Source of the DNA: a virus
Lineage: Duplodnaviria; Heunggongvirae; Uroviricota; Caudoviricetes
Length of the DNA: 13,076 nucleotides
IMG/VR virus record: IMGVR_UViG_2778261393_000007
Span: 1 to 13,076 of that record
Reading direction: 5' to 3' (one strand)
The translations under genes were made by a program, and so were the position numbers. How positions within the stretch are numbered: the first letter of the stretch is position 1; the number at the start of each line of letters is the position of its first letter. Shown piece by piece: positions 4,164 to 4,652 of this stretch. The notes beneath the pieces were generated by a model, which made no database searches, was not told where the DNA came from, and worked only from the letters and a program-made list of their open reading frames with translations.

Positions 4164-4295
4164 AGTCATATCTCCTGAACAAAACAATGGTTATGATTGC
4201 ATAAACTGAAATGACGATCTACATCATTGCAATTTACGAAACAATAACGCATGATGATCGCGTTCTTCCCATTGACTTCAATCACCTGAAAAACA

Positions 4296-4327
4296 AAGCC
4301 CGCAACACTTCTGGCTGCGGGCTTTTT
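4296..4327. terminator. intrinsic terminator hairpin, potentially bidirectional
   Basis: Perfect 9-bp stem AAGCCCGCA (4296-4304) / TGCGGGCTT (4316-4324), loop 11 nt. T-run 4323-4327 on plus; on minus followed by UUUGUUU (revcomp of 4291-4297). Confidence 0.6.
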
Positions 4328-4333
4328 ACTGGC

Positions 4334-4359
4334 ACAAAAAAGCCGGGAAAAATCCCGGC
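4334..4359 (-). terminator. intrinsic terminator downstream of the PerC-like gene
   Basis: 7-bp stem GCCGGGA (4342-4348) / TCCCGGC (4353-4359), loop AAAA. On the minus strand it is followed by a 6-U run (A-run 4336-4341), 6 nt after the stop codon at 4365-4367. Confidence 0.65.
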
Positions 4360-4364
4360 CTCCG

Positions 4365-4652
4365 TCACTGACTGCAATTTTTCGATCCAGGGTATTTCCT
4401 GAATGCCTTACCATTGGGCTGATGTAATCCCATCCCGGCATGTGCCCGGCTGATGGTTTCGCGCATCTCCCCGAAATTATCCTGCCGTGCTGGTGGGCGT
4501 GCTGCCTTGCGGATACATTCCGCGCGACGTTTTGCCGCCTGTTCCCGTGCCTTGTCATCATTCGCCAGCATGATGACCTCAGCCCACCGCGCCGCCGCTC
4601 TCCGGTACAGACCACGCGCTTCCAGTGCTTCAGCTTTGCTGTCGTGAATCAT
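4365..4652 (-). CDS. PerC-like transcriptional regulator family protein
   Basis: 95-aa ORF. N-terminal AEALEARGLYRRAAARW matches the pattern I recall for PerC/Pch-family activators; unverified. ATGA overlap with upstream gene stop. Confidence 0.55.
   Translation of the reverse strand: MIHDSKAEALEARGLYRRAAARWAEVIMLANDDKAREQAAKRRAECIRKAARPPARQDNFGEMRETISRAHAGMGLHQPNGKAFRKYPGSKNCSQ

Follow-up and report, generated by a model that had tools for sequence, protein, structure and literature searches.

The question raised by this locus is what a PerC/Pch-like reading frame and two terminator-like hairpins are doing within the leftward gene string of an Escherichia coli phage satellite, and whether the encoded regulator might act on host chromosomal genes, as a preliminary description had suggested. 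The window, that is the whole stretch of 13,076 nucleotides analyzed here, is an EcCICFT073-type PICI, an E. coli phage satellite. It carries an integrase, an AlpA-family regulator and a P4-type primase/replicase, then an iteron origin, as Gram-negative PICIs do; the other criteria applied were a single transcription direction, a size of ~10-15 kb and the absence of tail or lysis genes. The gene order is int, alpA, P4-type primase, iteron origin, proQ/finO, perC and a late/packaging-like operon (Table 1), and near-identical islands occupy the yicG-yicC interval of E. coli chromosomes. In model PICIs, AlpA is the inducer of the leftward programme, and its role in EcCICFT073 has been described (PMC6092414); helper-phage induction and packaging have been demonstrated for model islands only. 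The primase reached 101 bits against TIGR01613, under the cut-off of 108.7, and its RefSeq relatives bear the name 'DNA primase family protein'.

Table 1. Coordinates of the features considered in the window (strand in brackets; a dot marks features without orientation).
Feature	Position	Strand	Remarks
Integrase (int)	11823-13076		
AlpA-family regulator	10653..10964	(-)	Pfam Phage_AlpA PF05930, E 1.8e-8, above cut-off
Antirepressor, Icd-like and DUF4222 genes			Present among the parts of the window
Rightward accessory genes			DUF3800
P4-type primase	5868-7640		TIGR01613
Putative replication origin, iteron-rich and AT-rich	5590..5872	(.)	GTGAACAGT repeats, 3' of primase gene
ProQ/FinO-domain gene	4649..5227	(-)	Pfam PF04352, E 6e-24
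perC	4365..4652	(-)	95 aa, PerC/Pch-family small regulator, last gene of early (replication) operon
T1, predicted intrinsic terminator of early operon	4334..4361	(-)	Stem 4340-4361, U6 at 4341-4336
Module junction	4333..4334	(.)	Between T1 and T2, just past the T1 U-run
T2, predicted second, potentially bidirectional terminator	4289..4328	(-)	Stem 4295-4325, flanked by A-run and U-run
Candidate late promoter/operator	4197..4241	(-)	Direct repeats TTTCGTAAATTGCAA (4241-4227) and TTTCAGTTTATGCAA (4211-4197)
First small gene of late/packaging-like operon	3990..4187	(-)	ORF list
Leftward late/packaging-like operon	1905-4187		DUF2213/prohead-protease-like protein and TerS-like N-terminal HTH protein

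The putative origin holds at least ten copies of GTGAACAGT in both orientations at a GC content of 31-39%, and PICI origins are known to come after pri-rep. Three tandem 10-bp copies of the iteron at 5590-5872 overlap the primase stop. Between the origin and proQ, a 115-aa ORF (5172-5519, minus strand) with a good ribosome-binding site runs into the 5'-extended part of the ProQ ORF; no Pfam family matches it, and it is unannotated in a near-identical RefSeq island. The RefSeq orthologue of the ProQ/FinO gene begins at the equivalent of 5206, and the NCBIfam FinO/ProQ matches to this ORF were sub-cut-off. The perC-proQ segment (4400-5000) has a GC content of 58-61% vs 30-55% elsewhere in the island, which is consistent with a separately acquired module. 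On the late side, the first small gene has a 57-aa orthologue annotated in locus L001 and homologous first genes in L009 and L010. Two adjacent minus-strand ORFs (2630-3301 and 3366-3959) match different parts of phrog_6216 (545 positions), the upstream gene positions 403-544 and the downstream gene positions 115-328; judging from these matches, one phage protein appears split and permuted across them. A 174-aa HTH protein was considered as a possible Rpp; its PHROGs match is limited to the N-terminal TerS-like HTH, and it has no PDB sequence match.

On profile and pairwise matches, ORF 4365-4652 (-) is a genuine PerC/Pch-family small regulator. The protein, which begins MIHDSKAEALEARGLYRRAAARWAEV..., matches the Pfam PerC profile (PF06069) over positions 1-89 of 90 (E 2.2e-32; 111.6 bits, cut-off 22.6), so that the family resemblance first noticed in its N-terminal motif holds over the full length, and it also matches phrog_994 (PHROG 994) full-length (E 8e-36). 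It is 44% identical to EPEC PerC of pMAR2 over 87 aa (E 8e-26), 51% identical to PchE of O157 Sakai over 90 aa (E 7e-35) and 45% identical to a plasmid-borne family member of 104 aa (L007; E 3e-29); PchA-type proteins, which we take to be ~45% identical to it, are placed by estimate. Across nine PerC-family members 18 alignment columns are invariant, with an N-terminal motif made of D4, A7, L10, E11, G14, Y16-R17-R18-A19-A20 and R22-W23. PF06069 was found in all 120 homologues among the matches listed, the RefSeq orthologue WP_000581047.1 is already called 'PerC family transcriptional regulator', and a single-protein search of genome contigs returned 2 loci only. Given a pN/pS of 0.15-0.33 over the 27 distinct alleles compared, perC is under purifying selection. 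No NCBIfam model matches the protein, and its only significant Pfam match is PerC, with no sign in either collection of ANR (AraC negative regulator), the family to which EcCIMP1_025 was proposed to belong; Foldseek returned nothing significant, the fold matches being generic. The perC ATG overlaps the stop of the upstream ProQ/FinO ORF (ATGA, 4649-4652), an arrangement that is consistent with translational coupling.

What such a protein might do can be approached from its relatives. A mechanistic study showed that Pch turns on LEE1 by lifting the silencing imposed by H-NS/StpA/Hha (PMC4764244), and for this reason we favour an anti-silencing or modulator role for the window PerC. Both this mechanism and the targets of PerC here are drawn by analogy with Pch, and anti-silencing has been demonstrated for PchA-type proteins only. 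By this analogy, the protein would most likely be small and all-helical and would lift or remodel the H-NS-type silencing of horizontally acquired promoters that are AT-rich; it is probably no classical HTH DNA binder.

It has also to be asked whether PerC is a moron-type virulence regulator selected to control host chromosomal regulons such as the LEE, which we consider unlikely. The proQ-perC segment is present in 281/5426 complete E. coli genomes, and the islands that carry it are found in ETEC/APEC isolates as well as in CFT073, 042 and 55989, strains that are not known to carry LEE. Since these three strains carry a PICI perC, the LEE cannot be the general target of PICI PerC. The optional accessory slot that perC occupies (see below) would suit a moron, as would the activation of LEE1 by EPEC PerC and PchABC. 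Some E. coli PICIs encode PerC alleles of which some, not all, activate LEE (Fillol-Salom et al. 2018). The 2025 EcCIMP1 paper, which describes PerC regulators as common in Gram-negative PICIs, reported that the EcCIMP1 allele (EcCIMP1_025) represses LEE1 and that the PerC-like genes of EcCIEDL933 (PchE) and EcCICFT073 are without effect on LEE1 fusions. Thus, the effect of PerC on LEE1/ler is allele-dependent and can be activation, none or repression. The suggestion that a satellite regulator such as the window PerC may act on chromosomal genes has already been published.

Two hairpins with U-runs, also seen in the preliminary description, follow perC and prove to be strong. T1 begins 3 nt past the perC TGA stop and forms 9 pairs (dG -16.0) before its U6; T2 forms 12 pairs (dG -19.8 on the minus strand), with A5 before it and UUUGUUUUU (4297-4289) after. 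The 111-nt stretch that contains them folds better than its shuffles on both strands (z = -4.9 for the minus and -4.5 for the plus strand). Under a strict terminator definition (stem of at least 7 bp, at least 5 G-C pairs and a U-run), 4 sites were present in the window vs 0.63 +/- 0.77 in 150 dinucleotide shuffles; T1 and T2 are two of the four, and two strict sites within 40 nt occurred in 0/150 shuffles. Loose terminator patterns are common in the window (23 observed vs 15 expected), and a terminator scan of the window ranked T2 best and missed T1. We infer from these structures that transcription would indeed terminate at T1 and T2. The first hairpin of the preliminary description, which is T2 here, had been described as able to terminate plus-strand transcription as well. 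Its stem does fold on that strand (dG -16.1), and a U5 follows of which three nucleotides lie inside the stem. T1 has no U-run on the plus strand; as T2 alone has both a stable plus-strand stem and a U-run, only T2 can be bidirectional, and such action is plausible. In Rfam, T1 and T2 reached nothing above threshold; their one match, to the Bacillus sRNA ncr1175 (32 bits, gathering score 60), reflects two generic terminators, and an RNA family of this type was rejected. Two further strong hairpins of the terminator kind were observed in the window. One (3326-3349, minus strand) has 10 pairs and a dG of -18.1; it is internal to the late operon, sits between a 197-aa gene and the DUF2213 gene and is part of a weak Rfam anti-hemB-like match. 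The other, a predicted terminator at 9724-9749 (plus strand; 11 pairs, dG -18.5), lies near small rightward genes that have a YlcI/YnfO-family annotation in the related island L001.

The conservation of T1 and T2 was followed in 80 IMG/VR loci together with Sakai Sp7, CFT073, 042 and others. T1 variants were compared by folding each separately; MAFFT aligned them out of register because their loop lengths differ. In the compared loci perC is always the last gene, after the primase plus ProQ/FinO or SSB, and a T1-type hairpin, GCCGG(G/A)...(C/T)CCGGC with a U-run, lies 3' of perC in most lineages, including PchE/Sp7 and EcCICFT073. Its stem reads GCCGGG/CCCGGC in the window vs GCCGGA/UCCGGC in PchE and EcCICFT073, a loop-proximal change from G-C to A-U that keeps the pairing; L031 and L022 are among some relatives with a weak T1 or an interrupted U-run. 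Islands devoid of perC have a T1-type hairpin directly 3' of ssb, so that T1 is a mark of the close of the early operon and not of perC itself. As for T2, the Megablast matches of more than 100 E. coli genomes start at window position 4333/4334, and L009 encodes an identical PerC protein joined to a different downstream region from which T2 is absent; this homology break and the L009 arrangement show that T2 belongs to the downstream module. In L017 the basal pair of the T2 stem is A-U instead of G-C; L010 and L046 retain a degraded stem, and L022, like L009, lacks T2. An analogous A-run/hairpin/U-run of unrelated stem sequence is found in EcCICFT073, L077 and L049, and in some lineages a ~350-nt ori-like segment lies between T1 and T2. 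On these comparisons, the two predicted terminators are not one dedicated tandem device, as a recombination junction separates them. In the E. coli O177:H21 capsid-forming island (L092:4745-4993), the perC slot behind ProQ/FinO is filled by an unrelated gene of 82 aa; no family matches this gene, and a hairpin with a U-run lies 3' of it.

Downstream of T2, two 15-bp repeats of the form TTTC-N6-TGCAA stand 30 bp apart. Each of 29 loci, EcCICFT073 (L091:349-394) among them, has a single copy of this direct-repeat element, invariably placed past the terminators and ahead of the late operon; the element is PICI-specific and kept among late modules that are otherwise unrelated. A TTGCTC-16-TATAAT promoter comes after it in the EcCICFT073 lineage. 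A good -10 hexamer is missing from the candidate late promoter of the window, where the scan called no sigma-70 site; this suggests activator dependence, and the candidate late promoter thus probably needs an activator. Neither the promoter region nor the element had a meaningful match in 50,697 phage records, and a helper-phage late activator as the driver of this promoter was rejected on that account. An IMG/VR search with the element alone returned 66 PICI-type loci. In 50 of them perC is immediately upstream of the element; the remaining 16 have the order primase-SSB-T1-T2-element and no perC within 2.5 kb, which makes perC a frequent but optional accessory cargo. Such optionality argues against an obligatory cis-encoded late activator.

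These data bear on the idea that PerC is a regulator of the satellite's own life cycle, which would activate or de-silence the late operon through the direct-repeat element, LEE control in EPEC/EHEC being a later co-option. The frequent adjacency of perC and element, the restriction of this single-copy element to PICIs, with none in phage records, and a late promoter that probably awaits an activator would all be expected if it were so. However, in the 16 perC-less islands T1, T2 and the element come straight after ssb, perC is present without the element in Sp7, L031 and L052, and the slot can hold the unrelated 82-aa gene mentioned above. We thus regard a life-cycle function of this kind as quite unlikely. 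That PerC-family proteins are above all satellite life-cycle factors, small TPR-like anti-silencers produced from the close of the early operon to open the direct-repeat late promoter (or helper-phage promoters), with LEE activation as a secondary co-option, seems to us distinctly improbable.

The preliminary description had also proposed that the terminators split the leftward programme. A split is indeed favoured by the promoter-like element past T2, but the hairpins to which it had been ascribed belong to separate modules. Since this element is conserved, two leftward transcription units are likely on sequence grounds, the late one starting from what we infer to be an active promoter. T1 and T2 might instead be conditional, with an antiterminator (AlpA or a helper-phage protein of the Q/N type) allowing read-through, so that early and late genes would form one induced unit and the hairpins would serve only to keep the late genes silent before induction. 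Transcription of Gram-negative PICIs is described as running one way from alpA, AlpA overexpression alone induces excision and replication of EcCICFT073 (PMC6092414), a P. aeruginosa protein named AlpA is a processive antiterminator, and the tandem terminators sit within an otherwise co-directional gene string. The link to the P. aeruginosa protein is, however, a shared name: in the PDB the window AlpA matched none of the P. aeruginosa AlpA complexes, its single match being 8c3t ('AlpA family phage regulatory protein', E 9e-4), and as no sequence link to those structures was detectable, the window AlpA was rejected as a homologue of the antiterminator. Together with the promoter-like element past T2, which argues for independent initiation, this leaves conditional read-through a decidedly doubtful explanation. 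A very improbable one is that T1 and T2 are mainly RNA targets of the adjacent ProQ/FinO-domain protein, serving autoregulation or giving a ~70-nt 3'-UTR-derived sRNA: the FinO-domain gene is the next one upstream within the operon, T2 combines a 5' A-run with a 3' U-tail as is typical of ProQ-bound terminators, and there is the weak two-hairpin Rfam match, but this match lies far under its gathering score and concerns generic terminators, and a tie of the tandem hairpins to ProQ was rejected, the same T1 and T2 layout being found beside ssb in lineages without proQ (the EcCICFT073-like L077, and L094).

Our preferred account, which we hold to be reasonably probable as a whole, is that of a PICI with perC in an accessory slot, an early operon ended by T1, a backup terminator T2, a late operon with its own promoter and an anti-silencing PerC. 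The PerC/Pch-family protein would be functional, its gene lying in an accessory slot of variable content where the early operon closes (alpA ... primase - ori - proQ/finO - perC), and transcription of this operon would end at T1, which is kept there whichever gene is last. T2 would come with the neighbouring late module, serve as a backup for T1 and possibly also stop antisense (plus-strand) transcription. The late/packaging-like operon would start from its own promoter, marked by the direct-repeat element. The interpretation given in the preliminary description is thus partly supported.

PerC/Pch proteins are classic virulence activators, and their carriage by satellites helps to explain their spread, a point already made in the literature. 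PchE was located in OI-51/Sp7, and PerC and ProQ figure among the accessory genes of PICIs in a 2026 survey. A satellite-borne perC is therefore already known in kind, and its presence here is an ordinary, well-supported finding. The minor new details concern the accessory slot, the T1/T2 junction and the direct-repeat late-promoter element: perC is optional cargo in a slot at the close of the PICI early operon, T1 goes with this slot and T2 with the late module, the two being divided by a recombination junction, and a PICI-specific direct-repeat element marks the putative late promoter.

Known systems share this layout to different degrees. In E. coli O157:H7 Sakai, PchE (ECs_1588) is encoded by Sp7 / O-island 51, which is the PICI EcCIEDL933. 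As in the window, perC comes last after the primase (plus SSB in Sp7) and is followed by a T1-type hairpin, in Sp7 AGCCGGAGAAATCCGGCU with U7 at 5 nt past the PchE gene, and then by the late (capsid) genes. Unlike the window, PchE is preceded by SSB and not by ProQ/FinO, the second hairpin is weak and the direct-repeat element is absent; Sp7 is a capsid-forming island, and PchE was reported to be inactive on LEE1. EcCICFT073, the model E. coli PICI, has the whole succession of perC (C_RS07000), T1-type hairpin, A-run/hairpin/U-run, TTTCATAATTTGCAA...TGCAAT element and late/interference operon. Its perC is, however, a different allele annotated with 82 aa, the sequence of its T2 stem is unrelated to that of the window, its late module differs (capsid-like, decoration and Rpp) and its promoter has a perfect TATAAT. 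EPEC PerC (BfpW), the founder of the family on the EAF plasmid pMAR2, has the invariant N-terminal motif in common with the window protein; it is plasmid-borne, is encoded by the third gene of perABC and activates LEE1, and no terminator-like hairpin was seen in the 150 nt past the stop of its gene. Finally, EcCIMP1_025 is also a PICI-borne PerC-family gene, with a reported identity of ~40% to other PICI PerC proteins; its cross-talk to a chromosomal island has been assayed, and it is reported to repress LEE1-lux in C. rodentium.
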